From Cyanidioschyzon merolae (lineage: Eukaryota): a stretch of DNA of 64,000 nt. The stretch lies in NCBI GenBank assembly GCA_000091205.1, contig AP006499.2. One strand, 5' to 3'. The position numbers were made by a program, and so were the translations under genes. Shown here in pieces: positions 2,901-62,949 of the stretch; within the stretch, counting starts at the first letter, position 1, and every line of letters begins with the position of its first letter. The notes under the pieces were generated by a model. That model was not told where the DNA came from. It saw nothing but the letters and a program-made list of their open reading frames with translations, and did not search any database.

Positions 2901-3674
2901 ATGGCGTACCGCGGACTTCACGCCTTGTCACAGCCAGCTTATTTAGAGGACTTTATAAACTCAGTTTCGAACCTTCCCCAGGAGTTACGCGACAAATATG
3001 GACGAATGGGAGAGCTCGATGCGCTCGTGCAGCGGTTGAAGAACGAAGCTGACGCGCTCGTTCGGGAGCTGCTGCGAAAGCCTGGCAGTTCAGACCCCGA
3101 CCGAGGTCGCGACACCACTTCGCTGCAGCAAATGGGAACAAAACTTGAGCAGCTGCAAGCTCAGTGTGTAAAGCTCAATCAGGAGAAATTGCAACTCGCC
3201 GAGACGGCGTACAACACGGTGGACCAGCACGTGCGAGACTTGGACACAAAACTGCGGGAATATGAGGCATACCTGCGCCGGGAAGGCCAGTGGCCCGACG
3301 ACCTTCAGAGCCTGGTTGTGAACACCGACCATACGAAAATGGCGTCGATGAAGAACGCTGCTGCTGCTGCTGCGGCAGCACATACTGCAGCGGCTCCTGC
3401 CACGACAGCGCGCTCGACGCAAAAGGCGCCCTCCAAAGGTCAACGCAAGAGTGGCGAACCATCGACATTGCATATCATGGATGATATGCCGATCGATCCG
3501 AATGAACCGCGATACTGCTACTGCCAGAATGTCAGTTACGGGCAAATGGTTGCTTGCGAGAGCGGCGACTGTCCATACGAGTGGTTCCATTTCGAATGCG
3601 TCGGCCTCACTGAACCCCCGAAAGGCGAGTGGATTTGTCCCGACTGCCGAGCCAGAACAGGTCGCGTTCGGTAG
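2901..3674 (+). CDS. ING: ING (inhibitor of growth) family PHD-finger protein
   Basis: N-terminal ING helix (YLEDFINSVSNLPQELRDKYGRMGELD). C-terminal PHD finger YCYCQNVSYGQMVACESGDCPYEWFHFECVGLTEPPKGEWICPDC. Track ORF starts at GTG 2889; the first ATG is at 2901. Contains a poly-Ala tract. Confidence 0.8.
   Translation: MAYRGLHALSQPAYLEDFINSVSNLPQELRDKYGRMGELDALVQRLKNEADALVRELLRKPGSSDPDRGRDTTSLQQMGTKLEQLQAQCVKLNQEKLQLAETAYNTVDQHVRDLDTKLREYEAYLRREGQWPDDLQSLVVNTDHTKMASMKNAAAAAAAAHTAAAPATTARSTQKAPSKGQRKSGEPSTLHIMDDMPIDPNEPRYCYCQNVSYGQMVACESGDCPYEWFHFECVGLTEPPKGEWICPDCRARTGRVR
3356..3379. repeat. (GCT/GCN)n microsatellite inside ING CDS encoding poly-Ala
   Basis: gctgctgctgctgctgcggcagca read directly. 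Confidence 0.85.
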
Positions 3675-4620
3675 CGTACCGGGCAACGCACGCTGCTGAG
3701 CGTGATTGTTGACTGGGAGTATACGGCGCTCGCGCGACGAACGCTACACGCAAACGGGGCAAGCGTACCGGAGTGCGGGCAAGGCGCTTGGGTTTGGATT
3801 GCCACGAACCTATGCATCTGCACCGGCGATGCTATAAGATAAATACCCTGTCTTTAGTGCTCAGGCGAGTGCCCGTTTGATGAGATCGAAAACGACTCTG
3901 GGAGTAGAGTGAGCGTGTTCGCGCCCTGCAATCATCGAATCGAGGCAGGGAAACGGCGTGAGATTGCGCACGACTGCCGCTGGACAGGGGCGCTCGCGAA
4001 CACCCTCTTTCGGACGCTGCACCGGGCGGGTCGTCTCGCGCGCACGGCATCGCAACACCTCGCAGGCACCGACGCTGGATCCGCGGATCAGGTGCTTGCT
4101 CGAAGGACAGCACACGGGTTAGGCATATCGCCTGGATGGCATCCATTTCGGGAAGCACGTCCGTGGGTGACGCGCAACTTTGCAGCAGAGCTGTACAGCT
4201 TTTTCTATTGATTCAGTGAGCTTGAAGTATCGGCAAGTCAAGCGTCTGTCACTGCAGTGTGAGCGCTTCGCTTCGCCCGTCCCAGCGGGATGCATATCGA
4301 GTCGATGCGCATACGGAATTCTTTCGAGGGCCGCGGAGCGTGTGCGTGCACCCGGATCACGTGAAGCGCTGGGATCTCGCTGCATGCGCTGATGCCTGGT
4401 TGCTCGCCATCCGGTGGCGCTGTGGCCCTGCGTGCGCCTCCGATCAGCGCAGGATGGAAGCGCGTCGCGCTGGCGACGCCATTTTGGCGGGAATATTGCA
4501 AAGAAGCGCACGCAGTATATCGACACGTATGCGTTGCATCAACGATGCAACGAGCGCCGCATGGACACCAAGGCGGCCACTGGGGAATACCTGTGCCTGG
4601 GGGGCGAACCTCGGTCTCTG

Positions 4621-5859
4621 TTAGAGACCGTTCACGGGGACGGTCGCCGGGGCGCGGGCTCGGAAAAGCTGGCAGCTCACGGTCAAGGGTCGCACGACCA
4701 CTGGTGTGTGTGGGGCAACCAAGCAGGCCATTCCCGGTGAAAGGCGATAACTGTGGTCGATCCCGTGTTGGGAAATTTGTGCCTCGCCTTCTACATCGAG
4801 CAGGATGGAATAACTTGCTGATGACTCTAAATGCAAGTCCGCGGATTCCTCTCCGTGGCGTTCCAGTTCAAGACACTCGAGTTCGAATTCGCAGACCGGG
4901 GCGAGGAAGCGATTCTGAGCATCCCGTTGCAAAATTTGCACCGGGTCTTTGCAGCGATACGTGAGCATCTTGCACAACGTCTCGACGTCCTTATGTTTGT
5001 CGGTCAGTCCCGCCCGAACAACATTATCGCTAGTCGCCATGATTTCCACACAGTCTCCCTCTAGGTACGCGTGTGGCTCATTCGGTTCGATGAAAATGGC
5101 TTGACCAGGTTCTAACCTCACATGATTGAGCAGGAAAGCAGCGAAAATGCCGGCATCGTTTGGGTACTGCTTGAGGAGTCGTAGCGCGAGTGCATGCTCC
5201 GCATCCAGAACATCGGCGGCCTCTAACCGCTGGCGGAGCTGGTGCGCTTGTTGCCGCGAAACGTCTTCGTTTCGCATGAGGGATTCGAAGAGTTTTCGGA
5301 GTCCGTCCGGTGCAGATGGTGAGGAGCAAAACGTTTCCGCATACGCCCCACAAGCGCCACGAAACTCAGGGACCTGCTTCAGTGCTCGGACTATCTCCGC
5401 TACTGGTCGAAAACCGAGGAGCGCCTCGAACTGCCCTGGTCCAAGGCAAACACACATTTCTGGCTTGTGGTTGCCGTCTTTGTAAAGCTCAGGAAACTGC
5501 TTATGCAAAACTTTCGCCAGCGCAATATCCGGGTGCGCCTGAATAGAAAGCGCCCGCTCCACGCTCAGCACTTTCAGAAGAAACGGCAGCGAGCCTGCAG
5601 GAACAAAGATTGAAACGGGAACGCTTTCGTTGGCCTCGGTAACGACGGAGGCCTCTCCAGACGGGTGCGCGCCGAGCCAGAGTTCCGCGTAGGAAACGGA
5701 CTCCGAGACTCGTTCCGACTCCAGTGTCCCTTGAGCGACTGCGTAACGGGCAACCCGCGACCCCATACCACGTCGACCCCAGGCGTAGGTCTGGACGTGG
5801 CCTCGCAGGAGCCAAATACCCTGCTGTTGGCGTTTCGCGTCCACGGAAAGTGCCACCAT
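4621..5859 (-). CDS. PMI: mannose-6-phosphate isomerase (phosphomannose isomerase, type I)
   Basis: ATG start confirmed (rc of 5857-5859). Motifs YAELWLGAHPSG, LSIQAHPD, EPNEPHAYLEGDCVEIMATSDNVVRAGLT match the PMI type I family. 412 aa. Confidence 0.8.
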   Translation of the reverse strand: MVALSVDAKRQQQGIWLLRGHVQTYAWGRRGMGSRVARYAVAQGTLESERVSESVSYAELWLGAHPSGEASVVTEANESVPVSIFVPAGSLPFLLKVLSVERALSIQAHPDIALAKVLHKQFPELYKDGNHKPEMCVCLGPGQFEALLGFRPVAEIVRALKQVPEFRGACGAYAETFCSSPSAPDGLRKLFESLMRNEDVSRQQAHQLRQRLEAADVLDAEHALALRLLKQYPNDAGIFAAFLLNHVRLEPGQAIFIEPNEPHAYLEGDCVEIMATSDNVVRAGLTDKHKDVETLCKMLTYRCKDPVQILQRDAQNRFLAPVCEFELECLELERHGEESADLHLESSASYSILLDVEGEAQISQHGIDHSYRLSPGMACLVAPHTPVVVRPLTVSCQLFRARAPATVPVNGL

Positions 5860-6821
5860 CTTGTGCAGATTAGAAACCCCAGAAGAAAAGTAACCGAAAA
5901 GAAGCGTAACGCGGTATGGTTAGATATTGAAGAACTCGTAGAATTGAATATGTGAAATGCTGTTGCCGCGTGAATGGCCGATGCGTTGAATCCTAGACAA
6001 AAAAGACACGTCATGCTGGAATGCCACATAGGCGCCCTCAGCGCACGCCCAAACGTTTTCAGGCTTTCTCGTGGAAAAACCGGTATACGCCGAGGACGAG
6101 TTTCACAGCGGCCTCACGGATAGTGCGAGCTGAGCGAACGCGGACTGGATTGTTCAAGGCGACTGCACCGAGCAGAAACGCGTTTCCCCGGGTAACCTGA
6201 ACCCCGTTGGAGCTCGCGCTCTGGCTTTCGTGCGCAGCCAAACGAGTCTGCAATCGCACCCGAGCTTGACCCAAGTATGTGTCCTGGTGCAGAGCGGTTG
6301 GACTTGGCGCCCGGAGCGACAGATCGACGCGAACGCGCAGTCGAGTGGCTCCTGTTCCAGTCTCGGTTGCAGGAGCACTCGAAGAGAGCGCCGCTGACGC
6401 GCCCTGTGGCCCGGAGTCCTCTCGAGGAGCGACTGCAGGCTTTCCTACCGGAGATGCAAGCTGAAAACGCAGCATTGTTTGAGAAGATGCGAAAAGGCAC
6501 AGCTGTCGCCGTCGATACTGACTTCAGCACAGCAGATGCGCCTGAGGACGAGTGCGATGTTCCAACTGTTGAAGTGCTTCTGGTCACAGCTTCTGCTCAT
6601 GCCCAAGATACAGTAGAAGCTGCCGCACCGCAACGTCTGGTGCAAGTTCTGGGCCAGGGAGACGCCGAGCAGTGCCTGATGACCGGTGAGCAACCTCGAG
6701 CGACGCCCATGGAGGCGCCCGTCGGCAAGGCTCCACATCCAGGTGCCGCTTCACGCATGCGGAAAGCGAACCGCCATGATGAGCCTTAGGGAATCGCTTT
6801 GGAAAATAAGAGGTTCTGCGT

Positions 6822-7943
6822 TTACAAGAGCGGCGTTCGGAGCAAGTCGTAGCAGCTGTAGGCCAATAGGCCGTAGAGAACCGATACACACAGCAGGTAC
6901 TGCCAAGAACGTCGTGTTTTCCGCGGCAAACGATCCAGAGCAAGCATTAGCGCAGCGGTCAGAATGTACCGAGCGGCGTGGATGAAGCCCTCCGCAGCAA
7001 GTGCGTCCGGAGGAACAGGCCCCCGTCGACGAGCGTATGGGTTTGTGCTCCGAACTCGAATACGCTCGCCATCCCAGACGAACAGAGGCGTTCCTTGAAT
7101 GATCCATCCATGGCCACCGCCAAGCGCAAATGCGTAAAGAAGCAGCACAAAAGCGAGCCATGTTCCCGTTCGCTGATACCATCGCCACCGCCAGCCCAAA
7201 TAGAGTCCAGCGACGAACAGAGAGAGTACCAGTAGCCAATGGCGTCGCAAGGTTGGCACGACGTAGACAGGTCCACCGACACGAAGGCGCAGCGGTGGTT
7301 GCCTCCCGAGGCGTTGCATATCGGCATTCACTTGCCGCATAACCCATTCGGCGAAAGCCTTGCGATCCATCCCATCGCCAGCCGGAGGAGGTCCCGGGCG
7401 GAAACGAGCGTACTCTGCGTCAGGAGCGATGTCGGCATTCGCTGGAATGTAGAGAACTGAGGGCAACAGAGGGATTTTCAGTTTCTGAAGCCAGGGCACG
7501 AACTCGTTTCGGTTCTTTGAGGTCAAGTCGACCATGAGGGTAAACACTGGGAGCTGGCCTCTAGCTTCGTACCGGGCGTTTGAGCGCTTCACGAGGCGGG
7601 CGACCAGCTCGAGGTTGTGGCGCATGTATGCACAGAGGCCGCAGTTGGACTCCTGCTCCGTCGCCGTGACGAACAACAAGACTCCAAAAGGTCGCTCTTT
7701 TGATCCGAAGACAGTACGCTCCAGGCTAGATGCTCGTCGGACAGGAATGACGCCCGTTTCATAGTTTTGACGCAAGTCCTTCAAACGTTGCACAACTTCG
7801 GTTGCAGCGCTGGCGGTAGAAGCTGCAGCAGCAGCACCGAAAGCGGCCTGGTTTCCAGGTGCGCCCTTCGGTTCCACGCTTACGCAGCACATACATAGAG
7901 CGAGTAAGAGTGCCGTCCAGCCGAAAGCTTTTCGCGCAAGCAT
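6822..7943 (-). CDS. OST3/OST6 family oligosaccharyltransferase subunit (TUSC3/MagT1-like). Thioredoxin-like luminal domain plus 4 TM helices.
   Basis: Track ORF begins at GTG 8105. Internal ATG at 7943 gives signal peptide MLARKAFGWTALLLALCMCCVSV. CxxC motif (NCGLCAY) in the luminal domain. Four C-terminal hydrophobic helices, typical OST3/OST6 topology. Confidence 0.55.
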   Translation of the reverse strand: MLARKAFGWTALLLALCMCCVSVEPKGAPGNQAAFGAAAAASTASAATEVVQRLKDLRQNYETGVIPVRRASSLERTVFGSKERPFGVLLFVTATEQESNCGLCAYMRHNLELVARLVKRSNARYEARGQLPVFTLMVDLTSKNRNEFVPWLQKLKIPLLPSVLYIPANADIAPDAEYARFRPGPPPAGDGMDRKAFAEWVMRQVNADMQRLGRQPPLRLRVGGPVYVVPTLRRHWLLVLSLFVAGLYLGWRWRWYQRTGTWLAFVLLLYAFALGGGHGWIIQGTPLFVWDGERIRVRSTNPYARRRGPVPPDALAAEGFIHAARYILTAALMLALDRLPRKTRRSWQYLLCVSVLYGLLAYSCYDLLRTPLL

Positions 7944-9527: not shown

Positions 9528-10722
9528 TTGAAAGGACAGATCCTAGCTACAAAGACGCAAATAGGTATTGGCGCTAAACGAAGACCCAGAAGTTGCTTTC
9601 AACGCTGGGGCACTGACGAGAACAGGGTCCGCGCGTTCACCTGTCGTGAGAAAGAGGACACGCGTCCACCCAGAGCGCTGTCAAGCGCAGCGCACTCCTG
9701 AACGCTTAAAAGCCACTGCGCGCCCACGAGCCCGCTTTCCAAACTCTCAGCACGTTCCTCTGTGCGTAACAATGTTATTTACCAGAAAAAAACGCTTCGT
9801 CTGACTTGAGCAGCGCCTCGTCTCAAACCTTCCACTACAGAGTTTTTCCTACAAGTCGCATTTTAGCTATTTGTGACGCCCGCATCCCAAAGCGCGTTGC
9901 TTCCGTGCGCGCCCCGCACACGGATGCCGCCGCTGTTTAGCATGCGTGTCCGCGGCGTCGAATGCCGCCGCATGCCGAATGAACAGTCTACCAGCGATTG
10001 GGACATAATGGACACCGCCGCTCGAGTCGCCGCTGATCCACCAGCACCACGACATGGACCGGGGGCCTCCCTGGACTGCGCGATAGCAAGCGACATCCGG
10101 GAAGGCGCGCACCACTCTACGCCCCAGCTCCGAGTTCCATTGTTCATACTTCTCATCGGATATGCTGGTCATGTCGTGCGTTCTGTTGTGCCCTGAGTCT
10201 GCAGTGAGCGTTCACTAAAGCGCCCATAGCGACACTGCGAACGCTGCACGGAGACAAAGCGGCTTTGCCAAGCCACTGAGGGGAAGTTGGCTCGAGAAGC
10301 GGCTGCGCATCAAGCGTTACAGGAAAACTCCACTGGAGTTTCGGCAGTGCGAATACCAACATTCCTGGATCGACCAAGCCTCTGTTCACGAGGAGGCAGC
10401 ATCCTCGCATTAGAGCAACGTGGTCCTGGTTCTTGGGGAGCGGAGCTTGCTTCCCTGGGCATTCGTAGCGCTCAGGCATCGGGGAGCGTATCCGGTCAGG
10501 TGTGTTGTGATGTCAGCGCCATGGGGGCAGATGGCGTGCGCGCGCTCCCGCGTCGGCCGCAGCATAGCGTTGACAGCAGGAAACTGCGCGCTTCCATACA
10601 ACGAAGTCTGTACCTGGAAACACTGGTGTTTGTGTCTCGGCACCAGAGACTGAGTACGTGAAGCACTGAGGAATCTTGAATATATAGCAGTGATCCTTGA
10701 ACGAGTCCAAGGTGTAGTACAC

Positions 10723-13700
10723 ATGACGGTGGAAGGCTCTTTAAAGGGCGACGCTGCTGCACCCGTGGCAGACGCGGAGCCTGCAGCGTCTCCTCGGAAC
10801 GAACCGGAAGCAGCGCCTGGTCCGCCCTCACCGGACACGTCGAGGCGACTCAACCATGAATTGGCGAAACAAAATGCAGAAGTTGCAAGAGACACACAGT
10901 GGTCGACGCGTCAACGCCTCAAGTACCTGGTTTTGAGGTACGATATCTTCGCACACTTTTTATCGAGCGGATCACTCGCGAAGCAGAAACTTGTGGAAGC
11001 TGCCGGCTCCGTGGAAACCGCTTCTCCCGGAGAAGGAGCAGCGGGAGGTACTCCCGGTCGGCGTCGTCTGACGGAACGCGAAGAGGACGCGCTCCTGCTT
11101 GAAGCGGACGAGGAAGGGCATAGCGAGTCGGTACACTTGACGGTGCAGCCACCAGGCATACGTGGAACGATGCGGCCATACCAGATCGAGGGCCTAAACT
11201 GGCTAGTCCGACTGCATCAGCACGGCATCAACGGCATTCTTGCGGACGAAATGGGTCTCGGCAAGACGCTGCAGACCATTGCCCTGCTAGCGTTTCTGAA
11301 GGTATACAAAGGCATCCGCGGACCGCACTTGGTGATCGCGCCCAAGTCCACGCTCGGGAACTGGAATCTGGAGTTTGAGAAATTCTGCCCAGATTTCCGC
11401 GTCGTTCGTTTTCACGGGGACCAGGAAGAGCGAGCCCGAGTAGCCGCGTCGCAGCTCATTGTGAATCGGTTTGACGTTTGCGTTACCAGTTATGAGATTG
11501 CGATCCTTGAAAAGGCGGTGCTGCGTAAGTTTCATTGGCGTTATCTCATTATTGATGAAGCGCACCGCATCAAGAATGAGAACTCAGTACTCAGCCAGGT
11601 GGTGCGCATGTACAATTCTCAGAATCGTCTTTTGATCACCGGTACACCGCTGCAAAATAACTTGCATGAGCTCTGGGCGCTGTTGAATTTTCTGCTCCCT
11701 GATGTGTTCAGCTCTTCGGAGGATTTCGACGCCTGGTTTGAGCAAGTAGAGGGAACCACTGAGGAGGACGCCAAGGCAGAAATGGTTCGTCAATTGCATG
11801 CCGTTCTTCGGCCGTTTCTCCTGCGTCGCCTCAAGTCAGAAGTAGCGCGAGAGCTGCCGCCGAAAAAGGAGAGAATCGTATTCGTTCGCTTGACGAAAAT
11901 GCAGCATGAGTTGTATCGGTCCCTGCTTAAGAAAGATGTGGATGCAATTAGCGGGCAAGGCGGCGACCGCGCTCGACTGCTGAACATCCTAATGCAGCTG
12001 CGCAAGTGCTGCAATCACCCGTATCTATTCGAAGGCGTTGAAGATCGCACCTTGGATCCGTTTGGTGAGCATGTTGTGCAGAACAGTGCAAAATTGGCGT
12101 TGCTAGACAAACTGTTACCTCGCTTGCGCGCTGAGGGGCATCGGGTTTTGATCTTTTCTCAGATGACGCGTATGCTGGACATTTTGGAGGACTACTGCTG
12201 TGAGCAGATGCGAGGGTATCCGTACTGCCGTATCGACGGCTCGACGGATAGCGAAACGCGCGAGCGCATGATCGAGGAATTCAACGCAGAAGGAAGCGAC
12301 AAGTTTATCTTCTTGTTATCGACGCGCGCCGGGGGTCTCGGCATCAATCTGGCCTCAGCTGATACCGTGATTCTGTATGACTCAGACTGGAATCCGCAAG
12401 TTGATTTGCAAGCGATGGATCGTGCCCACCGCATTGGACAGAAGCGGCCTGTTACGGTGCTGCGTCTCATTTGTGAGTCAACAGTCGAAGAGCGCATTCT
12501 GCGCCGAGCCTTAATGAAGCTCAAGATAGACAACATGGTCATCCAGCAGGGCAGGCTGGTGGAGGGCCAGAAAGCGCTTGCTCGAGGCGAAGTGCTCGAC
12601 ATGATTCGATTCGGTGCAGATTCCTTCTTCCGAGCGGACGCACAAGACTTCAAAGACGAGGACCTGGATGAAATCCTGCAACGCGCCGAAGCAAAGACCA
12701 AAGAGGTAACCGAAAGCATGGAAGAAGAGGCTCGGAAACGGAGCCAGCATGGGCTCAACCTCATGGATTTCAAAATGAGCGATGACGTCGGCTCCGTCTA
12801 CCAATTCGAGGGAAAGGACTGGTCGGCAGAGGCAGCGTCATCGGCTAAGAATTTCTTCTTCCTCGATGTGGGCAAGCGAGAGCGCCGGAACACAATCAAA
12901 TCCTACGATGAAGCGGCCTACTTCCGCGAAGCACTGTATCACGGCGGTGCCAGCGGCGATGTAGGTAGCACCCAACCACAACCAAAGCAGCGCATGCGCC
13001 TGCCGCCCGAACCCAAAGTCTATGACTGGCAATTCTTCAACGTCGATCGCATCATGGAGTTGTACGAGAAAGAGCGCCAAATAATTGATGAATACAATCG
13101 AACATGCGAGAATCTGACTGAAGATCAGATGCCGCCGGAGCCGGAGCCTCTTTCGCCGAGCGAACGTGCGGAGCTCGAGCGTCTGCTTCAAGAAGGTTTC
13201 AGTAACTGGCGGTATCGCGAGTTCCAGCAGTTTCTGCGGGCTTGTGAGCGCCACGGCCGCCACAACATAGAAGCGATTGCTGCCGATCTCGCACAGGTGA
13301 AAACCTTCGACGAAGTTAAGGAGTATGCGGAAGCGTTTTGGAGACTGGGTCCGGACCATATCCGTGACTGGCCACGCCTCCTTGAGCAGATCGAGCAAGG
13401 TGAAGCACGTGTGGCCAAGCGGGAAGAGATGGAGCGAGCGCTGCGGAACAAAATAGCACGTTATGCGGATCCATGGAACGAGCTCGAGTTACCCGCTTCT
13501 GTCCAAGGTAAGGTGTTCTCCGATGAGGAGGATCGCTTCCTTCTCATTATGGTGAATAACCTCGGTTACGGACGCTGGGAGGAGCTCAAGATGGAAATTC
13601 GTCGCAGCTGGCGTTTCCGTTTTGACTGGTTGATCAAATCTCGCTCAGCTGTAGAACTGAAGCGGCGTGTTGACGTCCTACTCCGAGCTATTGAACGGGA

Positions 13701-14046
13701 GAATGCCGAGTTCGAAAAAGCCGAAGCTGCAGCCGCGAATCGTAAGAAGCACGCCCAGGTTCGTAGCGTACGTCGCGTCAAATCCGAGGCAAGTTCGAGC
13801 GAAAAGGAAAGCGCACACAACGACAGCCGCACCACAAAGCGTGCAGCGGCAGGGAAAGCGTCTGAGCAGAAGCCCACGGCAAACGCCAAGCGTAAGGCAT
13901 CGTCAAGCACCGTGACGACCTTGGACTCCACGTCCAAGCGCTCGAAACGCCCCAACACCGACTCCGTGACCGCGACGAGCGAGAAGCGCTCTACCGGACC
14001 CATCGAACGGTACGCTCGTCGCAAAGGCACTACAAAAGCAGCCTGA
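10723..14046 (+). CDS. ISWI: ISWI-type SNF2 chromatin-remodelling ATPase (SNF2_N, helicase C, HAND-SANT-SLIDE)
   Basis: Motifs GILADEMGLGKTLQTI, DEAHRIKNENS, LLITGTPLQNNLHELWALLNFLLP, DSDWNPQVDLQAMDRAHRIGQKRPV. C-terminal SANT/SLIDE region (FSNWRYREFQQF..., GYGRWEELK). Track ORF starts at GTG 10690; first ATG is at 10723. Confidence 0.9.
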   Translation: MTVEGSLKGDAAAPVADAEPAASPRNEPEAAPGPPSPDTSRRLNHELAKQNAEVARDTQWSTRQRLKYLVLRYDIFAHFLSSGSLAKQKLVEAAGSVETASPGEGAAGGTPGRRRLTEREEDALLLEADEEGHSESVHLTVQPPGIRGTMRPYQIEGLNWLVRLHQHGINGILADEMGLGKTLQTIALLAFLKVYKGIRGPHLVIAPKSTLGNWNLEFEKFCPDFRVVRFHGDQEERARVAASQLIVNRFDVCVTSYEIAILEKAVLRKFHWRYLIIDEAHRIKNENSVLSQVVRMYNSQNRLLITGTPLQNNLHELWALLNFLLPDVFSSSEDFDAWFEQVEGTTEEDAKAEMVRQLHAVLRPFLLRRLKSEVARELPPKKERIVFVRLTKMQHELYRSLLKKDVDAISGQGGDRARLLNILMQLRKCCNHPYLFEGVEDRTLDPFGEHVVQNSAKLALLDKLLPRLRAEGHRVLIFSQMTRMLDILEDYCCEQMRGYPYCRIDGSTDSETRERMIEEFNAEGSDKFIFLLSTRAGGLGINLASADTVILYDSDWNPQVDLQAMDRAHRIGQKRPVTVLRLICESTVEERILRRALMKLKIDNMVIQQGRLVEGQKALARGEVLDMIRFGADSFFRADAQDFKDEDLDEILQRAEAKTKEVTESMEEEARKRSQHGLNLMDFKMSDDVGSVYQFEGKDWSAEAASSAKNFFFLDVGKRERRNTIKSYDEAAYFREALYHGGASGDVGSTQPQPKQRMRLPPEPKVYDWQFFNVDRIMELYEKERQIIDEYNRTCENLTEDQMPPEPEPLSPSERAELERLLQEGFSNWRYREFQQFLRACERHGRHNIEAIAADLAQVKTFDEVKEYAEAFWRLGPDHIRDWPRLLEQIEQGEARVAKREEMERALRNKIARYADPWNELELPASVQGKVFSDEEDRFLLIMVNNLGYGRWEELKMEIRRSWRFRFDWLIKSRSAVELKRRVDVLLRAIERENAEFEKAEAAAANRKKHAQVRSVRRVKSEASSSEKESAHNDSRTTKRAAAGKASEQKPTANAKRKASSSTVTTLDSTSKRSKRPNTDSVTATSEKRSTGPIERYARRKGTTKAA

Positions 14047-14409: not shown

Positions 14410-14928
14410 TCAAGGGTAAATGTATCTACCCGCCCGCAGACGCTTACCAATCTTTTTCAACTGGCCGCCTGCTATCGACTTGCGCTTCTTTTTAGACGCT
14501 TCGAGGATCAGAGGTTGTCCCACAGAGTTAAATCGCGTCAGCTTCTCGGGTCTCGTGTTCAGCACCGCACATCGACTGATGTGGATGGCGGCGTTAAAGT
14601 CCCGGTTGATGAACTCCATGCTTTTGTCGCCTCTGCTTGATCTCATCAATAAAAGGATTCCTGGAACTAGGGCCTTCAGTTCGGGTTGCTGCTCTGTCAG
14701 CTTTCGGTGCTTTTCTATCGCCGACGCGCTCCGCGGCTTTTTCTCCATCTCGAGCTTCTGGAGTGCACGCCCCAGCTCATCCCTTGGATTGTTAAAATGA
14801 ATGCATTTCATTATGCCGTTAGGTAAGGACATCATCAGGGGAAGAAGGAAATCTCGAAGAAAGGCGACACATGCCCCGATGTCACCGAGTGCAGAACGCT
14901 TCAGCGAATCAGCCAGTGGAATGATCAA
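14410..14928 (-). pseudogene. TnpB/Fanzor-like nuclease, C-terminal fragment only (zinc-finger remnant plus RuvC-III)
   Basis: Fragment sequence ...LQKLEMEKKPRS...FINRDFNAAIHISRCAVLNTRPEKLTRFNSVGQ. About 45-50% aa identity by eye to the C-terminus of the 48523..49116 ORF. ORF starts at TTG and is preceded by an in-frame TGA two codons upstream, so there is no N-terminal RuvC-I/II. Confidence 0.55.
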
Positions 14929-25127: not shown

Positions 25128-28100
25128 CCAGGCTGTCCGTTTCCTGAGTCTCGACGCGACGCAACTGCCGTGCTGGATTGCTGATCCGTTCGACTCTAGT
25201 GCCTGGTTCCAGACTTCAAGAATTCCCGCTCTTCACTGATGTTTTGTCATCGAAAGTCGTTACCGATTCAGCCCAGTATCCACTTTGAATACGAAATGAT
25301 TCCCTCGAATGGTCGCTCTCGATACAAAGTTGCTGGATGCTCCCGGAGCACGGAATATTCCCGGATATGTTGATCGGAGCGCTCTTGTCGTGATGCAGAA
25401 TGTGCTTATGTGGATGATTGCTGGTGCCAGCACAACATGGCAAGCCTCTCATCATCGATTATCTCCCTGTCTGGCACTCGGTCGGCTCACCGTAGACCAC
25501 CCGGTGTGTCGGGCTGTGTTCCAATTTCTTTTTCTCCAGCAGTTTCAGCGTGCACTCGAGCGCCTCGCATCTGTACTGCATCATGAACGCATCCATGAGA
25601 ATCTTCTGGAATCGATTCCTGCATCCGCTCGACGCGCTCTTCGAAGGGCCACTGGTGCAACCGATGTTTGCTATAGAGTGCCCATCGCCAGAAGCTACCA
25701 ACAACGGTCGACACGACTAGCAGGTCATTTTCTTTTGCAAGTCCTCAAACAAAAAGTGGTGAATGCGCGCTTCTTGCTTCCGTGGAGCGTAAATCGTTGG
25801 CGGCTTCAGTTGCGTTTGGCGTGCCCTTGGTCGAGATCGTCCGCAAGAGCCGTTTGGACGCGTATGCACGCTCTCGTAAAATAGAGCGTACAAAGCATCC
25901 GCCGCTGCACACTCGGGTGCGTCGAGCAGCGAGCTTATTCCTCATGCCGTCATTCCAAGTGTTGGTATGTGTCCAGGAGTCTGCCATGCGCGAGGTTTGG
26001 CGATCACGTGCCCTGGAACAGTTAAGCGGTATCACGTTCCTTCCTCTTGAGGTCTTTGGTTGCGTCTTCGTGATCTAAACGCACAGCAACTGCGACGATG
26101 TTCTTAAACTCAAGAAGCCCGCTCACCAGAGAATCTTTCTACCTTGAACGGTAACCAGTGGGTTGCTTTGTGTCACGTATGCCAGTGCTTCCCAAAAAGC
26201 GCATGCAGACTGGTATTCCATTGGTCTGCACCATCCTGATAAACTGCTTCCTGTTCCTTGCTGTAACCGAGATACCTTGAACGAACGCCACCAATGCTCT
26301 TCACAATAATATCCCTGAGCTTCATGCATGCTCCTAGGGACCAGCCGTCGCTCACTAAGGAGGCGACACCGCACAGCGCAGTACAGAAGTACATACGGTG
26401 ATGTCATGGACTTGGATCTGAAATGTAGGGACTCAGTTACGGGGATACTTTGGGATGCCTGGGCGCTCGCATATGGAGGCTAGGACCATTTTGCTCTGAT
26501 TTTGAAGCTTACGATTCAGGTTTAGGTAGCAGGGCAAGATGCAAGGAAGGCAGGCATCACCTGGCAAGTATCCTATGGGTACAGCGTCCGTCGATGCGAG
26601 GCTATGAACTACCCGATGCGCGTGGACGGTGAGAAACGACGCTCGCTCTGGTAAAGAGGTCACTTTCGAACTCGCTACCACCTCGAGCTCTTCCGTCGCA
26701 ACTTGCGCATTATTCGGCTTCATCGCCACCCGAAGAACCCGTTGCAAAACTTCACATTGTTCTTGCCTACGAAGACGAGGCCACCAAGGGCGCAACGCTG
26801 ACAGCGTGCGCTTCGTGAAGCGCTCGAAATTGACCCGCATCTGTCCTTGGTGTTGATGTTGTTCTTGTACTTTTTCGTATCGTAATTGGAGATACTCCGA
26901 TTGGCGTCACGATGCGACCATACGACAAGCTATTCAGGGCGACACGAGCACGACTCTACGATGCTATGATCAGGCTGTACTGCATTCCGCGTCCCGCGAG
27001 TCAGTTGTGTTGTCGGATGCGGGTTTCGTTGAAGATTTCTCGCGTTATGTGGGTATCATTCAGTTCTGTGTCAGGAAATGCTGCGAATCGTTGTTTGGCG
27101 AGCTGTTCCATGGCGAGACAAACTGGGTGAGCCTTCTTCGATCGAGAAGCTACGCGACATGTGATGATGTCATGCATTCCACGTTTAGGAAGATGCTCCC
27201 GGTTGATGTGTTTGAATAAGAAGACATTGACAAAGGTTTCAGACTGATCTCCGCAATGCGGCAGGTTCTCCTGTCCTATGCCTCCGCGGTTCGTTTTCAT
27301 AAGGATCCTCCTCTTCCATCACAAGTGATCCCTTTTTCTCTTTCGCTTGGCGGCGTAGCATAGATATGATCGCTAGACACCATATCGGGTTATTTTTCGA
27401 GCGATTCAGACGCACTGGGCGGACAGTGCCACTGAAACCCGCATTTCGTATGCATATATATAGATATGTAGTATACCCTACGAAGCTTGCCGTCACCTTT
27501 CCGGTCGCGAGCACGCCCACGGACTGAAGCGCACTTCTGCGGTTCCTCACCTGCTCGGGCAGACGACCGACCCAGCAGAGCAGAGCTCATGAAATTAGAG
27601 AAGCAATTGCCCAAGAACTGCGTTACGGATGCAATCAACTCGATGATCGATGCAAGAGCATCAATGGTGCATGTGACAACAGCGAAAACGCTTTCAACTG
27701 GATTGAGTCGTAGAGAGTACGCTGGGAAGCTGTGTCGGTTTAACGCCAACCTCAGCTGCATGCTCTTTGACCTCTTCTGCGTGATAGGAAACGATGAAAA
27801 CCATGAAGAGTTCGGAAGAACTCGGTAATGGGCATTCACGAAGCGGTTCCCGACGAAGATTTTGCCGTTGAACGATCCTAATCGTTGAAGGCTATCTAGG
27901 CGACCACACTGGTGATCCGCTAACTGGGCCGCTGTTGTCGGCATGCTCGCGTGCCTCTTCTTCACGAAAAGTGATTTGTTTTCTGTTTGAGTTCTCGCAT
28001 ACAGGTCAACCTTCTCATCCCTGTAAAGTCGTATCGAGTGAGACGAGCATGTATCCCTCTTGCAACAAGCGTTCGTTAGTCTGTACGCATTCAACAGAGT

Positions 28101-45758: not shown

Positions 45759-46415
45759 TTACGGCAACTGCAGTGCCCGAAGTCGTGCACTCAGATCGGC
45801 TTGCTCCTGTTGCAATCGTTTCCTCTCCTGGGCCTGAGCGAGGTCACGTTGTAAAAGTGGTAAAGTAGGGGCCGTTCCCAGCGCATGACTTAGCTCGAGG
45901 TTGTTCTCCTCTGCCGTTTGTCGAATAAGAAGAGCGACCTCATCCTCCTCGGGTGTCTGACTCGCAACCCCGGCGCTTACACGATCAAGTCCACTATTTA
46001 TGAGAACGTCGCGAACCTGGACGTCGTCCAAGCGATTCTCCAGGAGCTGAAGCGAACTCTCCAAGCGCTCCACGTCAAGCACGCGAATAGCGCTATCCAT
46101 GTCGGAGGCGAGAAGGCCCATTTCAGAGCCAATCTGGCCCAAGTCGCGCGCTGCTTTGAGACGTCCCACGACTGCGTCTAGACGAGCCGCCAGTCGCAGA
46201 TAGGTCGTGCGCTCTCTCGCTTTGCGAACAGCGCTCTCTGCAGAGACCACGCTCATCTCCGCGTTTCCCGACTTGAGCGCTGCCTTGAGCTGCTCCACGT
46301 ACCGCTCTCTCTCGCGTTGGCAACGGTTTGCTTGACGTCGCAAGTGTTTTTCCAAGAGAAGCAGCTTGAAAATATGCTCTTGGTATCTTTTTGAGGACGA
46401 CTGGGCGAGTCCCAT
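45759..46415 (-). CDS. Snf7-family ESCRT-III protein (CHMP-like)
   Basis: 218 aa, ATG start. Basic N-terminal half and acidic C-terminal half. Helical pattern ...LRRQANRCQRERERYVEQLKAALKSGNAEMS..AVRKARERTTYLRLAARLDAVVGRLKAARDLGQIGSEM typical of CHMP/Snf7. MGxxxS N-terminus as in Vps20/CHMP6. Confidence 0.6.
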   Translation of the reverse strand: MGLAQSSSKRYQEHIFKLLLLEKHLRRQANRCQRERERYVEQLKAALKSGNAEMSVVSAESAVRKARERTTYLRLAARLDAVVGRLKAARDLGQIGSEMGLLASDMDSAIRVLDVERLESSLQLLENRLDDVQVRDVLINSGLDRVSAGVASQTPEEDEVALLIRQTAEENNLELSHALGTAPTLPLLQRDLAQAQERKRLQQEQADLSARLRALQLP

Positions 46416-48012
46416 GTTTTAGGAAACAACCAAGAAAAGTTGCAGGAGAAACAAATGAGCGCACACGTGTGCTGTCTCCGAACACCGCTCCGGTACCAGC
46501 CCCATCGTTTGCGAACGGCCGCCTCTGGACAGCAGCGGCAACGGACAGCAGCGGCTAGATGGAGCGCTAAGAATCGGCCTTAACTGAGCGCGTTGATTTT
46601 TTCGATGACAAAACGTTTCACATGGGCCATGGATCTCATATCGCGGGACGGATCATGGTAATCAAAAAACGTGTATCATACTGCCACACGCTACCTCCGA
46701 GTCCCATTACTTATACTTCCCTCGGATATACTGATGGTTTCGTATGTTCTATCGATCGCCGATTACCTGCCGTGAGCACCCGCCGTAGCGCGTATACCAC
46801 CGATACGGATGCTGCACGGAGACAGAACGGCGTTGCGATACCACTGAGGGCGTCGGATCGATGTGTTTTTATAGGACATGGAATCGGAATCCCTTGCCAT
46901 TCTGGGAGCTTGCCGCAGCGGGGAGCGATATACCAGAAGACCACCGCGACCAGGGCGACGCTAAGACGCAGCATACCCACTCCTTGTTCCAGAAGAAACT
47001 GCGTTGTGGACGAGTTGCTCGGGTTTCGCTAAAGCAACAGCCAATGGGGCGATCATGCAACACAGGCCCGATAGACTCGTCCGGCTCGCGGGACCTTCCG
47101 CCCCGGGGGTAAACTATCGGCAATAAAGAAAGCCTTCCCCATTTTAACTGTTATCGCACAGGGGGAAGCAATCGTAATTTCGTTGCCAGTTAACGATTCG
47201 TTTCTGTTCCTTGTTCTATGCGGTGCGGTTGAGCAGCGCACCTGGAGATCTGGCGGTCACGAGATCGCGAAAAATATCGCACCTACCGCTTCAACCTTAG
47301 TCGATACGAGGGTGACCAGGATATTTACACCTACGGGGCCGTGAAGTACCTCACGAATCTGAAGAACCATTTGACGATGAACCTTGAATGTTTCATGATA
47401 CGCGCCGTGTTTGCGCTTTACGCGGGTATCTCTTGCAAGGGGATATGGGCGATTATCAATGGCATCACGAACGGTCGCAGGTATGAAGATGAGGTCGCAT
47501 TCGTGGACATGAGGGTATCAAACGGCAGCACGAATGAAGCTTCTGTGATCCGTGCGGTTATACAAGAGCACCGTGCGGTACTGGGGTTGGCGAATCCAAC
47601 AGACAAGATATCAGCGTTGAAAAAAAGATAAGGAAAGATACTATCGCCTCGTCCTGCGCTATTTTGTGTTTCTGGACCGAGAACTCGAACGCAAGGCACA
47701 GGTGGAGCTAAGTGAGGAAAAAAATGAAGAGTGGGAGAGACGGAAGGCTGCGCTTCTGGGGAAGCGCTTCAACGTGGTTCCAATGTGCAACATCAAGTCA
47801 CATTTTATGACTATCGGCTCCGGTGTCCTCTACGGCATCATGAGGGAGATCAGTCCCGAGTTTGATGTTAGCAGGGAGGAGTTCTCCGGTGAAGTCCGGG
47901 AGACGTACTGGAAAAATATCTTCAATTTCAAACGTCTCAAAATGAGTAAACAAAAGGTATTCACTGGAATGATCGAAACCGATGGGTAGCCATATGTGTA
48001 CACTATCGGCGA

Positions 48013-48486
48013 TTGAAGGCAGATCGTCCAGTTCCGCCCTCAGCTGCGCCCGTGACGAAGGATGCAGAAAACAAAGAGGCGGATTCTGCGACGCAGGAGG
48101 TCGAGGATTACGACCTTGTCGTTGACGCGGGGAAGGATGATGATGAGAAGAATGCGGATCCTGTGATGCAGAAAGTGCAGGATAACGACTTTGTCGTTGG
48201 CGCGGACCCTGGGAATACGAATATCATGAACATTGCAGTACCCAGGCGTGGGGAAGATGGTACTGACGGTAATTTACGTCAGAAAGACATGCGTTTTTTC
48301 AGGTTCTCGAGAGCGAGATACTATCGGGAATCGGGAATCATGAATGCGAGGAAACAATTCGAGATATGGAATGCAGGAGTGAAGGATCACCTGGAAGCGA
48401 TGAGCGAGGTGACTAGCCGAGGAGAGGACTTTAAAGCTTTTCGGAAATTCATAGAAGTTCGCATGGCGCACTGGGATGCGCTATGA
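48013..48486 (+). CDS. Fanzor/TnpB-like nuclease, RuvC-I-containing segment
   Basis: [18 protein letters not shown] matches the G-x-D-x-G RuvC-I motif of TnpB/Fanzor. ORF begins at TTG. Separated from the next segment by a single TGA. Confidence 0.5.
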
Positions 48487-48522
48487 GAGGAGTATACCAA
48501 GCCCCGGTGGGCTCGTCTGCGT

Positions 48523-49116
48523 ATGAATCTGTACTCTGGGAGGCAGCGGGCATTTGCCAACTTTTCCAATGAGTTGAGTGCCCTGAAGGACGACGAGGGT
48601 CAGAGGCTCGTTGTAGCATACGGAGCAGGGCACTGGAAGACCCAAAAAGGGACTACGGCAGCTCCAACAACAAGAACGTACAAAGAGTGTGCGCAGCGTT
48701 TGGTTACAGTATCGATCGTTGAGTTCCGAACGTCCTATACACACCATGAGCTAGGGTGTATACTTCAGAAGGTGGAGATGGAAAAGTGCCAGAGGAGCCC
48801 TGAGGATATGAAAAAGTACGGACCGCTGACGGAGGAGCAAATGGAAAGGAGAGCGAAATTTCGTGGACTACTTGCATTAGTGAGTACAACCACCAACGGC
48901 ACGAAACGTACGGATTTTGTGAACCGAGACTTTAACGCCGCTGTCAATAAAAGGAGATGTGCGGTGCTGGAAAGTAGACCTTCAGAGCTGACAAGAGAGA
49001 ACTTTGTTGGACAATCTCGAAAATATGAACTATACGAGAAAAAATTGGAAGCAGTAGTGGGTGGCCGGTCCAAAAAGACCGGGAGGCGACTGCACCTCGG
49101 GAAGCGTCTTGTCTAG
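48523..49116 (+). CDS. Fanzor/TnpB-like nuclease, RuvC-II / zinc-finger / RuvC-III segment
   Basis: VVAYGAGHWKTQKG (GNW-like), VEFRTS (RuvC-II Glu followed by TS), NRDFNAAVN (RuvC-III). Lys/Arg-rich C-terminus. Confidence 0.55.
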   Translation: MNLYSGRQRAFANFSNELSALKDDEGQRLVVAYGAGHWKTQKGTTAAPTTRTYKECAQRLVTVSIVEFRTSYTHHELGCILQKVEMEKCQRSPEDMKKYGPLTEEQMERRAKFRGLLALVSTTTNGTKRTDFVNRDFNAAVNKRRCAVLESRPSELTRENFVGQSRKYELYEKKLEAVVGGRSKKTGRRLHLGKRLV

Positions 49117-49190
49117 GGCGGGCTTCTCGCCACTACTGTACACCGGGCGCGACTCGTGCGGAACGCTCACTCACTCTCTCTGGAACCTGT

Positions 49191-49454
49191 ATGGTTCATG
49201 CGACCAAAGGGTACCTGGTGCGCTGTGATGTACCGATGAAACAACTGCTGCTTCACTTGGATCGAGAAGAACACTTCATCATCTGTGATCTCGATGAAAA
49301 ACACCTTTTCGTGAAGGAGGACGCGTTGTCGCTGATCCAGCAGAGCGTGGAAGCGCTCTACGATGAAGTATACTATGGGCCCCAAGAGCCCGGACCCCGA
49401 CGGCAGCGGGCAGGCGCTTCTACTGGAACCGGAACGCAAGAGTCGCTAGACTAG
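49191..49454 (+). CDS. TFB5: TFIIH subunit TFB5/p8 (TTDA/GTF2H5)
   Basis: MVHATKGYLVRCDVPMKQLLLHLDREEHFIICDLDEKHLFVKE aligns with human p8 [25 protein letters not shown]...KFIIQDIDDTHVFV. ATG start at 49191. Confidence 0.75.
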   Translation: MVHATKGYLVRCDVPMKQLLLHLDREEHFIICDLDEKHLFVKEDALSLIQQSVEALYDEVYYGPQEPGPRRQRAGASTGTGTQESLD

Positions 49455-60417: not shown

Positions 60418-62949
60418 GAGTATTCAGAGCGTTCCGAGGGACCTCAGCGACAAAGGGCGCTCTCTGGACAGCGGGCACCACAGTCTCTTCGCTGTGCTAC
60501 TGCGGACGATGCTGAAGAGCTCATTGCGCAAACTGCTCACGTGACGATCACCTTGAGTTTTCGCTCCAGCTGATGAAATACGCACACGCGGGTTCGAACG
60601 TATTTCGCGGTGTACCTGGTCAGCATCGGTAGCGTGTCCTGAAAGCTGTTAGAATGGTGAGTCACTGCTTCTGCTGCATGCTTATTTTTCAAAGATATTC
60701 CAACTATATGATGGTTAGAGGTCTGGCTGCTATGCCCAGCGTCACTGTTTACGTCCATTTCTCGAAAAAATGGGGTGTCGCCGACTCCGAGACGCGGACC
60801 CAGGTAGAGACGCTTCCAAAGCGAGATCATGGGCGCTCTCCCACAGACCTTCTCTGTGAAAGTGCACCCACTGCCGGGATCGAATTCGCCGGCAGAGACC
60901 AAGTGCGAGCTCCCGGTACCTAGATTGCAAGCGTCGGACCATAGAATATTTATGGTCTAAATAGTCCTGAACCGTATGATGGGACAGCAGCAGCTCGATT
61001 TCCTCTCTCCAGATTGCTGATGAGTGGTCCCAGCGCCAGCCGCTGGAAACCTGACGGTGACCAAACTTGACCTGGAATCTTGCGCAGTGCACTGCATCCC
61101 CTGTTCATGCTGCAGCGTGGACGCTGCGTCAAACCCTTGCATAGAGCTTGACTTGCGGTCCGGAACGCATTCGCCACGATCCTGCGTATCGGTTCAGTGC
61201 AGATGGTACGTGCTCAAACGCTCCATTTATATAAAGTACTATCGAATCATGGAGCTCTACTATCGATCTTTACTTGCATAGGGGGCCGTTCTCAGCACGG
61301 TCACATTCGGCGCTCCAGACTGCCTGCATTGCGGACCGTCCCTCAGCAGTGCCTTGCGCTTGCCGAGCATCCAGGTCTTTCGCTCGTCGCCAGTGATTTT
61401 TTCGTGGCAAGGCTTCAACGTTTCAAGTCAACGCCTGAGCAGAGTACTTTGTGATTCCGTTGGATGTTCGCTGGACACAGAGCCCATAGATGCTCCTGAA
61501 GCACGGAGCGTTTGCGGATGTTGATGGCGGTGTTCAAGTCTCCGTGCAGAATATGCGTTCTCGCGTGGTGACTGCTAGACGCATACCATAACATGCTTCT
61601 AATTTTCGATTGTAACGCCATCTGCCGCTAGCTGAGCCTCCCAACAGCAAACTTGTGCATCCCGTGATGTTTCACACTTTGGTTTCCTTTCTACAACAGG
61701 AAGCACCTGTGCTCCCAACGCATGAATGCCGCCCAGAATGCATCCATGGGGATCGTACGGAATCGATTCCTGCACTCGTTGGGTGCTCTCGTCGATGAAG
61801 CGGCAGTGCAGCGCTCGTGCCCTACAACACGTCCAGCGCTACAGCCTATCGCCAAACAGCACGACTTGTGCGTCATTTCCTGTTCCGATTCTTCGGTAAC
61901 GTTTCCGCATGCCCGCTTGTTGCTGCTGCCGCCATGGTACCGATCCCTTTCGCGATCCTAGAGCGCTCACGTATACTCCTGACAGAGAACGTACGCGTGA
62001 GCTGTTTGGATGTAGATGCACGTCCTGATTGGAGTGTACAGGGTATCTCGACCGTGTCGATAAAGCGTTCAGGGAGTCTAGAGCGATCCTGGCGCTTCAT
62101 GACACGCGCTGGAATGGCTCCTGGTGGACATCATACCGAACCGCCAATGATACCGAGCCTGGAAAAATTGAACAGATCAGTCTGCTTTCTTTCTGAAGTG
62201 TTCGCCCTCGTCCTCTATGTTCAGAGGCAAGGCGACGGCCATGATGCCCTTCAAAACGGGATCCACGCGCACCATGAAGAGTCTCTCTTCATCTACCTTG
62301 ATCAATTCCAAATGAGTATCTTTGCTAGACTCAGATCTTGGTTTCACAACATACATGCAGTGTGAAATGCTGTCAATCTCCATAGACCAGTGAGCGTCGT
62401 TCCATCTATTTCCTGTAAACGAGAAGCCTTGAACGAGCTCCGCCAATACAGTTTGCAGCGTAGCTCGATCATTTCATACTGTCTCGCAGAGAGCAGCCTT
62501 TTCTTCGCTTTCTATCCTACTCGGCCAGGTGGCGTGAGCGCAATAACCTAACACAATATCCATTTCTTTCTCGGGATTCAGACACAATAAGTGGACGATG
62601 CGGCCTGACCTCGCCTTTTCAATGTCTGCATGTATCTATTCTTGCTTAAGAACATTTTCGCCACCGTCGTGAGCACACAATCGGACCGAAACGCGCATTT
62701 CCTCTCCCGTCCGCGCACGCCTTCAAACCCTGCAAAGCAGATCAGAGCTGGTGAAGATCGAGAGCAAATTTTCAAAGAATGGAATTACGAATGCGAATGA
62801 CTCGTCTATGAATCCGTGAGCGCCTAAAAGGTGCTCCGCAACTGGGAAGCCGCCTTCGATTGGATTGAACTAGGGAGAAGAGGTTGAAATGAAGGGCGAC
62901 GCATCGCCAACCTCAGCCGCATACTCCTTGATCGCATTTGATTGATCGG

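Follow-up and report, generated by a model that had tools for sequence, protein, structure and literature searches.

A decayed CMe-1A Fanzor1 right end abuts TFB5 in Cyanidioschyzon merolae and probably serves as promoter or leader DNA for this gene

The CMe-1A family was described in Cyanidioschyzon merolae as ~150 copies of a ~3-kb element that are ~80% identical to the consensus, lack inverted repeats and carry a separate repeat, TE-N2_CMe, as their 5′ 635 bp; target duplications were not determined for it (Bao & Jurka, 2013; PMC3627910). In the case of SpuFz1 and GtFz1, the omega-RNA is located at the right end of the element and its guide is read from the flank (Saito et al, 2023; PMC10432273). 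Here, we have analysed a stretch of 64,000 nucleotides from contig AP006499.2 of C. merolae (the window), in which a Fanzor-like reading frame is followed on the same strand by TFB5, the gene encoding the TFIIH subunit Tfb5/TTDA (p8). Sequence comparison identifies 49117-49190 as the junction of a dead CMe-1A right end with the host gene TFB5, and the transposon end probably serves as promoter or leader DNA for this gene. The features that make up the junction are as follows.

47268-49116, plus strand: Fanzor1 pseudogene (three-frame translation, tblastn, motifs and 82-84% nucleotide identity)
49053-49145, plus strand: candidate omega-RNA scaffold, overlapping the last 21 Fanzor codons; the last family-homologous DNA here
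49146-49190, plus strand: CT-rich stretch of 45 nt, ATG-free, unstructured and without family homology (alignment, folding and shuffles)
49191-49454, plus strand: coding sequence of TFB5, 87 aa (list of open reading frames and Pfam)

The upstream Fanzor frame is the open reading frame (ORF) 48523..49116 on the plus strand, which terminates at the stop codon TAG 49114-49116. The 74 nt between this stop (49116) and the TFB5 ATG (49191) separate two frames on the same strand, and these positions had been given exactly in a preliminary description of this DNA, as judged from the ORF list and the translation. In Pfam, the 87-aa product is recognised as a full-length Tfb5 (PF06331, E = 4e-24; 84.8 bits, cut-off 23.5), and its residues 1-64 cover profile positions 1-66 of 67. 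A C. merolae 10D protein has the identical sequence (100%), and the orthologues of Cyanidiococcus (81% identity) and of another Cyanidiales lineage (73% identity) have the same MVHATKGY start. Tfb5 is a conserved subunit of TFIIH and the tfb5 deletion mutants of yeast are viable, so the word “essential” that had been applied to TFB5 is somewhat strong.

The Fanzor-like region was assigned to Fanzor1 and, by matching it to the published description (PMC3627910), to the family CMe-1A on sequence grounds. The conceptual translation of this region has 92 homologues, many of them 70-76% identical and nearly all from hot-spring metagenomes, which carry the Pfam domain DUF8286. A search of the Protein Data Bank (PDB) with the single sequence returned no match; the profile of 18 family members matched PpFz1 of Parasitella (9cf0, 5e-22), SpuFz1 of Spizellomyces (8gkh, 1e-12) and GtFz1 of Guillardia (9cer, 5e-4), and Pfam Cas12f1-like_TNB was matched by 4 of these 18 members. 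The D-E-D residues of the split RuvC domain (D484, E656, and D725) are invariant in the family alignment and have been kept in the conceptual translation of the window as the D in GADPGN (48199-48216), the E in VEFRTS (48718-48735) and the D in NRDFNAA (48922-48942). The earlier call of a Fanzor-like frame was therefore sound as to Fanzor1 identity, given the PDB profile matches, and the published CMe-1A family had gone unrecognised. At the nucleotide level, window 47268-49143 is 82-84% identical to copies lying in different genomic contexts, and 242 related stretches were found in metagenome contigs. Compared by description, the family seen here and the published CMe-1A share the organism, the Fanzor1 protein, the ~80% identity, the ~3-kb full length, the ~635-bp 5′ part, the lack of terminal inverted repeats, and the presence of many decayed and some intact copies. 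They differ in that the paper does not give ends, target, omega-RNA or genomic context, and in that the window copy is internally deleted and lacks a terminal hairpin described below.

The sequence of the window copy is that of a pseudogene. Its coding pieces, as mapped by tblastn of a full-length family protein (P0001), lie in frames 1, 2, and 1 with frameshifts at ~47625-47628 and ~47986, and an in-frame TGA occurs at 48484-48486. In addition, an internal deletion of ~657 bp with its junction at 47267/47268 has removed the 5′ untranslated region (UTR) and ~135 N-terminal codons, and the N-terminus of P0001 is absent from the window copy. The deletion was mapped on locus L051, where window 46597-47253 corresponds to 1668-2356 and window 47267-47400 to 3014-3147. 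No intact ORF was found in the window copy; intact or near-intact Fanzor proteins are encoded by some other members of the family. The canonical stop of the family is the TAG at 49114-49116, and 13 of 43 copies are open to the same codon; on this ground, the last ~35 codons of the Fanzor ORF were rejected as a read-through of the 3′ tail. A 75-nt (25-aa) tandem repeat (48056-48130 and 48132-48205) is located just before RuvC-I, and 2-4 units of it are present across family copies.

The right end was delimited by comparing the window with 80 further loci carrying family copies and three obtained by exact look-up; 44 loci were counted as independent, having distinct flanks and no two similar downstream proteins. 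The sequence common to all copies continues up to ...GCCACTACTGTACAC, which is window 49129-49143, and when the window was aligned to profiles from which it had been left out, the alignment stopped at 49145 or 49148 (right-end profile 49057-49145/49148, E ~ 1e-22). Because the family homology runs to 49145-49148, the first 29 nt of the gap (49117-49145) are element DNA. The preliminary description had also considered that TFB5 might be inside the transposon, in which case the true right end would be past 49454. This is refuted, as the homology with 40+ independent copies stops at 49145-49148, the downstream gene is different in every copy, the right-end profile has no second match downstream in the window, and TFB5 occupies a syntenic place between a Snf7-like gene and a Ca-ATPase gene in two lineages that do not have the element; proximity alone, and nothing more, speaks for such a cargo.

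The region 49053-49145 is a candidate omega-RNA scaffold by its sequence and predicted fold. Its RNA would start near 49053 (GCAGUAGU...); the region forms a closing helix GCAGUAGUGG/CCACUACUGU of 10-12 bp around three internal hairpins and ends with ...CCACTACTGTACAC(CG). It folds at -44.7 kcal/mol (z = -3.46), which only 1 of 200 shuffles could equal, and it folds better in the window than in many other copies. The consensus structure of 43 copies, obtained from sub-alignments, has the same multibranch architecture, and 88% of the cells are paired as compared with 36-55% when the partners were slid; RNAalifold on the whole 289-column alignment returned only one helix. The premise that scaffold and right end lie directly 3′ of the nuclease ORF was borne out by a 3′ end of predicted omega-RNA-like structure in front of TFB5. 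A search for such a structure had been proposed within 49117-49300; only 49117-49145 of that interval belongs to the candidate. Like SpuFz1 and GtFz1, with which it shares the protein family, CMe-1A has a conserved, putatively structured non-coding stretch from the stop-codon region to the right end. The (candidate) scaffold overlaps the last 17 aa in GtFz1 and 21 in the window copy, and ISDra2 shows such an overlap likewise. Spu-1 has 30-nt inverted repeats and a 75-nt scaffold, whereas CMe-1A lacks inverted repeats, has a candidate scaffold of ~93 nt and carries an additional hairpin module of ~45 nt. The identity of CMe-1A to the solved Fanzor1 proteins is remote, and its omega-RNA and its RNA-guided, TAM-dependent DNA cleavage are putative. 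A near-invariant CTATATGAG was not taken as a TATA box of the omega-RNA, as it codes for the conserved ELYEKK and the window has TATACGAG in its place.

In most copies, the scaffold is followed by 6-13 semi-conserved nucleotides, then by a strong hairpin and then by unrelated flank. This terminal hairpin exists in two structure-preserving versions, CGTCGTTCGA-CTT-TCGAACGGCG or AACGTTTTTC-TTTT-GAAAGACGTT, which fold at -16 to -18 kcal/mol (z = -3.4); L066:5031-5066 and L044:5119-5160 are examples. In the window and in ~500 kb of loci, the hairpin occurred only at Fanzor right ends and is therefore part of the element; its interpretation as a host promoter motif or a target was rejected for the same reason. 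Nine of the 44 independent copies, the window copy included, are cut off at variable points within the hairpin and thus have “fuzzy” 3′ ends. The ~45-nt hairpin module that most copies have is absent from the window copy, and the 45 nt of 49146-49190 (fold z = +1.68) occupy its position. These 45 nt are presumed to be residual native leader or upstream DNA of TFB5. They showed no significant similarity to the right-end tails in local alignments (p = 0.56-1.0 against shuffles), and a degenerate hairpin relic “cgact..gcg.gaacg” was rejected because the alignments were no better than those of shuffles and the profile stops at 49145-49148. The suggestion that the copy is a remnant with a damaged right end was therefore largely right, as it is a pseudogene that lacks the ~45-nt terminal hairpin.

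The history of the insertion was examined in the orthologous TFB5 loci, as the preliminary description had proposed, and two Cyanidiales lineages were found to keep the gene pair without the element. The order of the 333-aa ORF, Snf7-like, TFB5, Ca-ATPase, and Sec24 genes is kept in Cyanidiococcus yangmingshanensis (L014) and in another Cyanidiales lineage (L015/L016), where the gap between the Snf7-like gene and TFB5 measures 663 nt and ~1100 nt, respectively, as compared with 2775 nt here. No Fanzor similarity was detected by tblastn in the orthologous Snf7-like/TFB5 gaps of both lineages. Given that the element is missing from these orthologous loci and that its other copies are each followed by a different gene, TFB5 belongs to the host, and the insertion took place in the C. 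merolae lineage. By the same comparison, the former setting was a short divergent Snf7-like/TFB5 intergenic region, which now holds the element. All 10 contigs with an identical TFB5 carry the same decayed insertion, no empty allele of the site was found among 23 contigs, and the orthologous intergenic alignment did not locate the empty site, since only the coding parts align. For the TFB5 locus, these results remove an apparent oddity: a normal host gene has a dead transposon of a published family in its former divergent promoter, and the locus is ordinary apart from the relation of the element to TFB5.

This relation is the norm of the family. In 31 of the 44 loci, the first long ORF that follows the right end shares its strand and has its ATG 23-321 nt past ...GTACAC, and in 26 of the 44 a same-strand host ATG is located ≤160 nt downstream of the right end. 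A random intergenic position and orientation would place a same-strand gene start within ≤160 nt in ~8% of cases, as estimated from a crude gene map of this window; a single such adjacency is unremarkable and 26/44 against ~8% is the pattern. All 10 downstream ORFs that were tested are ordinary host genes (SMC-like, Cys-tRNA synthetase, ABC transporter and others), several of which have a Pfam domain starting a few residues after the first Met. In other loci, the distance from the element to the host ATG can be as short as 5-30 nt. In L079, the host ATG comes 5 nt past the core hairpin and the Pfam domain begins from residue 5; so short a distance leaves only the element to hold the 5′ UTR of this gene. 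On the upstream side, 15 of 17 loci have a divergent neighbour, which is farther off (median ~320 nt), and in 11 of 13 pairs it is the right end that is closer to a gene. Furthermore, the intervals from the right end to the ATG contain no out-of-frame ATG in 2199 nt, where 19.5 were expected, and their host-specific part beyond +45 contains none against 9.5 expected. Such ATG-free intervals are the signature of 5′ leaders. The ATG-free zone reaches the element in all 26 close loci, and 49053-49190 of the window has no ATG; within the scaffold, 4 ATGs were counted in 26 gene-adjacent copies and 8 in 17 others (p = 0.053). Head-to-head Fanzor pairs were also seen in one intergenic region with their right ends facing different host genes, at L003:988-3459 (minus) / 3455-5948 (plus) and L095:1787-2997 (minus) / 3000-4309 (plus).

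We consider it rather likely that element DNA now contributes to the core promoter of TFB5. The pre-initiation complex of RNA polymerase II occupies some tens of base pairs ahead of the start site. Given this footprint and only 45 nt up to the ATG, the TFB5 transcript would have to start inside the element or ≤45 nt from it, and with the start site in or near element DNA, at least the upstream half of this core promoter would be element sequence. The most likely mechanism combines an oriented insertion into promoter-proximal or 5′-leader DNA with an outward transcription from the omega-RNA end, or from a start site at its edge, that would keep the downstream host gene expressed. The Fanzor element would need such outward transcription anyway for reading its guide from the flank, and transcription from the host promoter remaining next to the Snf7-like gene may enter the element. 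The orientation bias of the family and its leaders that are ATG-free up to the element fit both parts of this mechanism. The insertion itself, which the preliminary description had offered as its first option, is supported by the orthologous loci without the element; the supply of the TFB5 promoter, the other half of that option, we infer from the geometry and the ATG-free intervals, and no sequence constraint was seen on the element end.

TFB5 could also be a passive neighbour that keeps a minimal promoter and a very short leader within 49146-49190, the adjacency in the family then reflecting an insertion preference for open promoter DNA or a survival bias in a compact genome. We consider this unlikely, as 45 nt are too short for a polymerase II core promoter plus leader by the established knowledge of its footprint, and other loci leave only the 5-30 nt mentioned above. 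The ATG-free zone that extends up to the element in all 26 close loci is also at odds with a passive neighbour, and open chromatin alone does not explain the orientation bias. On the other hand, the absence of extra constraint on the element end, both in the population and between copies, agrees with it, as do a dead window copy that has lost its terminal hairpin and the lack of any variable site in 49146-49190 among 11 population sequences, though only ~1.1 variants were expected there.

Several results weigh against a role of element DNA in the promoter or leader of TFB5. In the 11 population sequences, the scaffold has 3 variable sites in 93 nt (32/kb) as compared with 24/kb in the element body and 8-9/kb in host coding DNA, and the identity of the scaffold to the consensus is 0.851 in gene-adjacent copies and 0.854 in other copies. 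The test of exaptation, as purifying selection on the element end, was therefore negative by population variants and by copy conservation. A scaffold of -45 kcal/mol in a 5′ leader would hinder ribosome scanning. The scaffold itself had no family match in Rfam, the conservation of its non-coding tail (0.84) is about that of third codon positions, and no covariation beyond that of shuffles was detected in it among the 43 copies, which is expected because the copies decay neutrally. Moreover, metagenome contigs of C. merolae-like populations, rather than a single finished genome, were the source of the loci, the left-end boundaries in other loci are approximate, and the gene calls are ORF-based, so that some start codons may be placed too far upstream. 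Literature searches on start sites and 5′ UTRs of C. merolae and on the insertion preference of Fanzor returned nothing relevant. Two alleles (L005 and L006) carry a 2-nt deletion in the scaffold at the equivalent of 49100, which produces a 234-aa Fanzor ORF overlapping the TFB5 start; with such alleles, the element end is not tightly constrained.

The junction might alternatively be a functional guide RNA locus, in which the scaffold 49053-49145 and the next ~15-20 nt (GGCGCGACUCGUGCGGAAC) would be transcribed as omega-RNA and used in trans by the Fanzors of intact copies, for example in homing on an empty allele. Such a use would agree with the better folding of this scaffold than of many copies (z = -3.46), with the intact or near-intact Fanzors encoded by some copies (see also PMC3627910) and with the 14-15-nt guides that SpuFz1 reads from the flank (PMC10432273). 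However, the window copy is without the hairpin that sits between scaffold and flank in most copies and the register of the guide is uncertain, no empty allele is present among the 23 contigs, and the scaffold evolves at the neutral rate in the population, which together make a working guide locus improbable here.

For the family, we regard it as possible, with some reserve, that CMe-1A Fanzor1 inserts strand-specifically in host 5′ leaders or promoter-proximal DNA with its omega-RNA end firing outward, that dozens of housekeeping genes (TFB5, SMC-like, and Cys-tRNA synthetase among them) would be transcribed from or through a Fanzor end, and that the host promoter upstream may drive the Fanzor. 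If this is true, guide-RNA production would be coupled to host gene expression, a previously undescribed lifestyle for a transposon with an RNA-guided nuclease. Elements that target promoters or 5′ leaders or that read outward are known among bacterial insertion sequences with outward promoters, P elements, Mutator/mPing, Tf1, and the promoters of long terminal repeats. CMe-1A resembles them in being inserted just upstream of genes, in the functional state of the downstream genes and in an orientation that fits outward transcription. To our knowledge, none of them carries a Fanzor or TnpB nuclease. CMe-1A differs from them in that it is the guide-RNA end that faces outward, an end that works only if transcription continues into the flank, and its promoter activity is putative. 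If transcription starts in the right ends, C. merolae would be a natural system in which the outward transcription of a guide RNA is tolerated or co-opted as a host promoter or leader, and it would give clues to the insertion mechanism of Fanzor1 elements without inverted repeats. The wider value lies in the family pattern, that is, a defined right end that points at host start codons tens of bases off in most loci with no ATG between. As far as the searchable literature shows, the defined right end with its scaffold and hairpin, the separate 5′ module found in either orientation, and the oriented position next to host start codons with leader-like DNA between are new.

Subterminal hairpins are also present in the HUH transposons, namely IS200/IS605 and Helitron/Replitron. 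CMe-1A may be like them in the absence of inverted repeats and of an evident target duplication, in its right-end hairpin with two sequence versions, in its fuzzy ends and in its TnpB-type passenger gene; the subterminal hairpin is present in the family and absent from the window copy. No gene for an HUH or Y1 transposase was detected within the element, a search that did not extend to the rest of the genome. Replitron proteins have been reported as absent from red algae (PMC10288648).

The element extends well to the left of the Fanzor pseudogene, and the remaining features between TFB5 and its divergent neighbour are as follows.

45759-46415, minus strand: Snf7-like ORF, 218 aa, divergent neighbour whose ATG faces the left end of the element (ORF list)
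46416-46590, no strand: non-repeat DNA from the Snf7-like ATG to the left end of the element, 175 nt
46591-47218, plus strand: 5′ module of ~630 bp, a small non-coding repeat moving together with the Fanzor unit (65-75% nucleotide identity to the module upstream of many copies)
47219-47267, plus strand: left-end segment of the Fanzor unit (left-end alignment, group 4), with the deletion junction at 47267/47268

From sequence alignment, the composite element is 46591-49145, that is, 2555 bp consisting of the ~630-bp 5′ module and the deleted Fanzor unit. Of the 2775 nt between the Snf7-like gene and TFB5, only 175 nt next to the Snf7-like gene and 45 nt next to TFB5 are non-element DNA. This residue of 220 nt is short as compared with the 417-800 nt of other divergent pairs in the window and with the gaps of the orthologous loci, and it is compatible with a junction deletion that removed the hairpin and some native upstream DNA, as in the third possibility of the preliminary description. 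The left end of the module reads TGATTTTTTCGATGACAAAACGTTT, and the left-end alignment showed different flanks to the left of 46591-46596 in every copy. The alignment with L033, L041, and L042 is contiguous across the module, the left end, and the deletion junction, so the deleted composite has moved as a unit.

The preliminary description had missed this second module inside the Snf7-like/TFB5 interval, which by sequence matches the 5′ 635 bp given as TE-N2_CMe in the published description of CMe-1A (PMC3627910). The ~630-bp module occurs beside the Fanzor left end in either orientation and also solo, and on this basis it behaves as a separate small transposon (compare TE-N2_CMe). It was further seen at window 10128-10295, inverted in L027, L088, L077, L039, and L049, and solo at L048/L049 ~4725-5273 / 7343-7891. 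At 15 of 22 positions, its left end TTTTTTCGATGACAAAACGTTT agrees in direct orientation with the type-B right-end hairpin GTTTTTCTTTTGAAAGACGTTT. A 136-aa ORF at 46622-47032 was compared with a 136-aa ORF upstream of Fanzor in L001; the two are unrelated and have the same length by coincidence.

The divergent neighbour is syntenic with 72% nucleotide identity in L014 and L015. Its Pfam Snf7 match is below the threshold (E = 0.009, 16 bits against a cut-off of 27.3), and the product may be described as a conserved coiled-coil protein with a putative Snf7 assignment. The 46416..46590 DNA next to it, presumed to be the remainder of the original divergent promoter, has 1 variable site among the 11 population sequences. 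All three lineages have a short conserved motif ACACG..GTGCTGTC some ~50-75 nt before the Snf7-like ATG (window ~46462-46485, L014 ~7395-7420, and L015 ~6905-6930), which is a candidate promoter or leader element of the Snf7-like gene.

Across the 64-kb window, the GC content is ~55% and long intronless ORFs are present on both strands. Three older and more diverged Fanzor-like relics were found on the minus strand, at 14452-14780, 25366-25704, and 61493-62278, with 50%, 32%, and 28% amino acid identity to P0001, respectively. The relic at 14452-14780 abuts the 3′ end of a 1118-aa ORF (10690-14046) and is an “end-facing” case.

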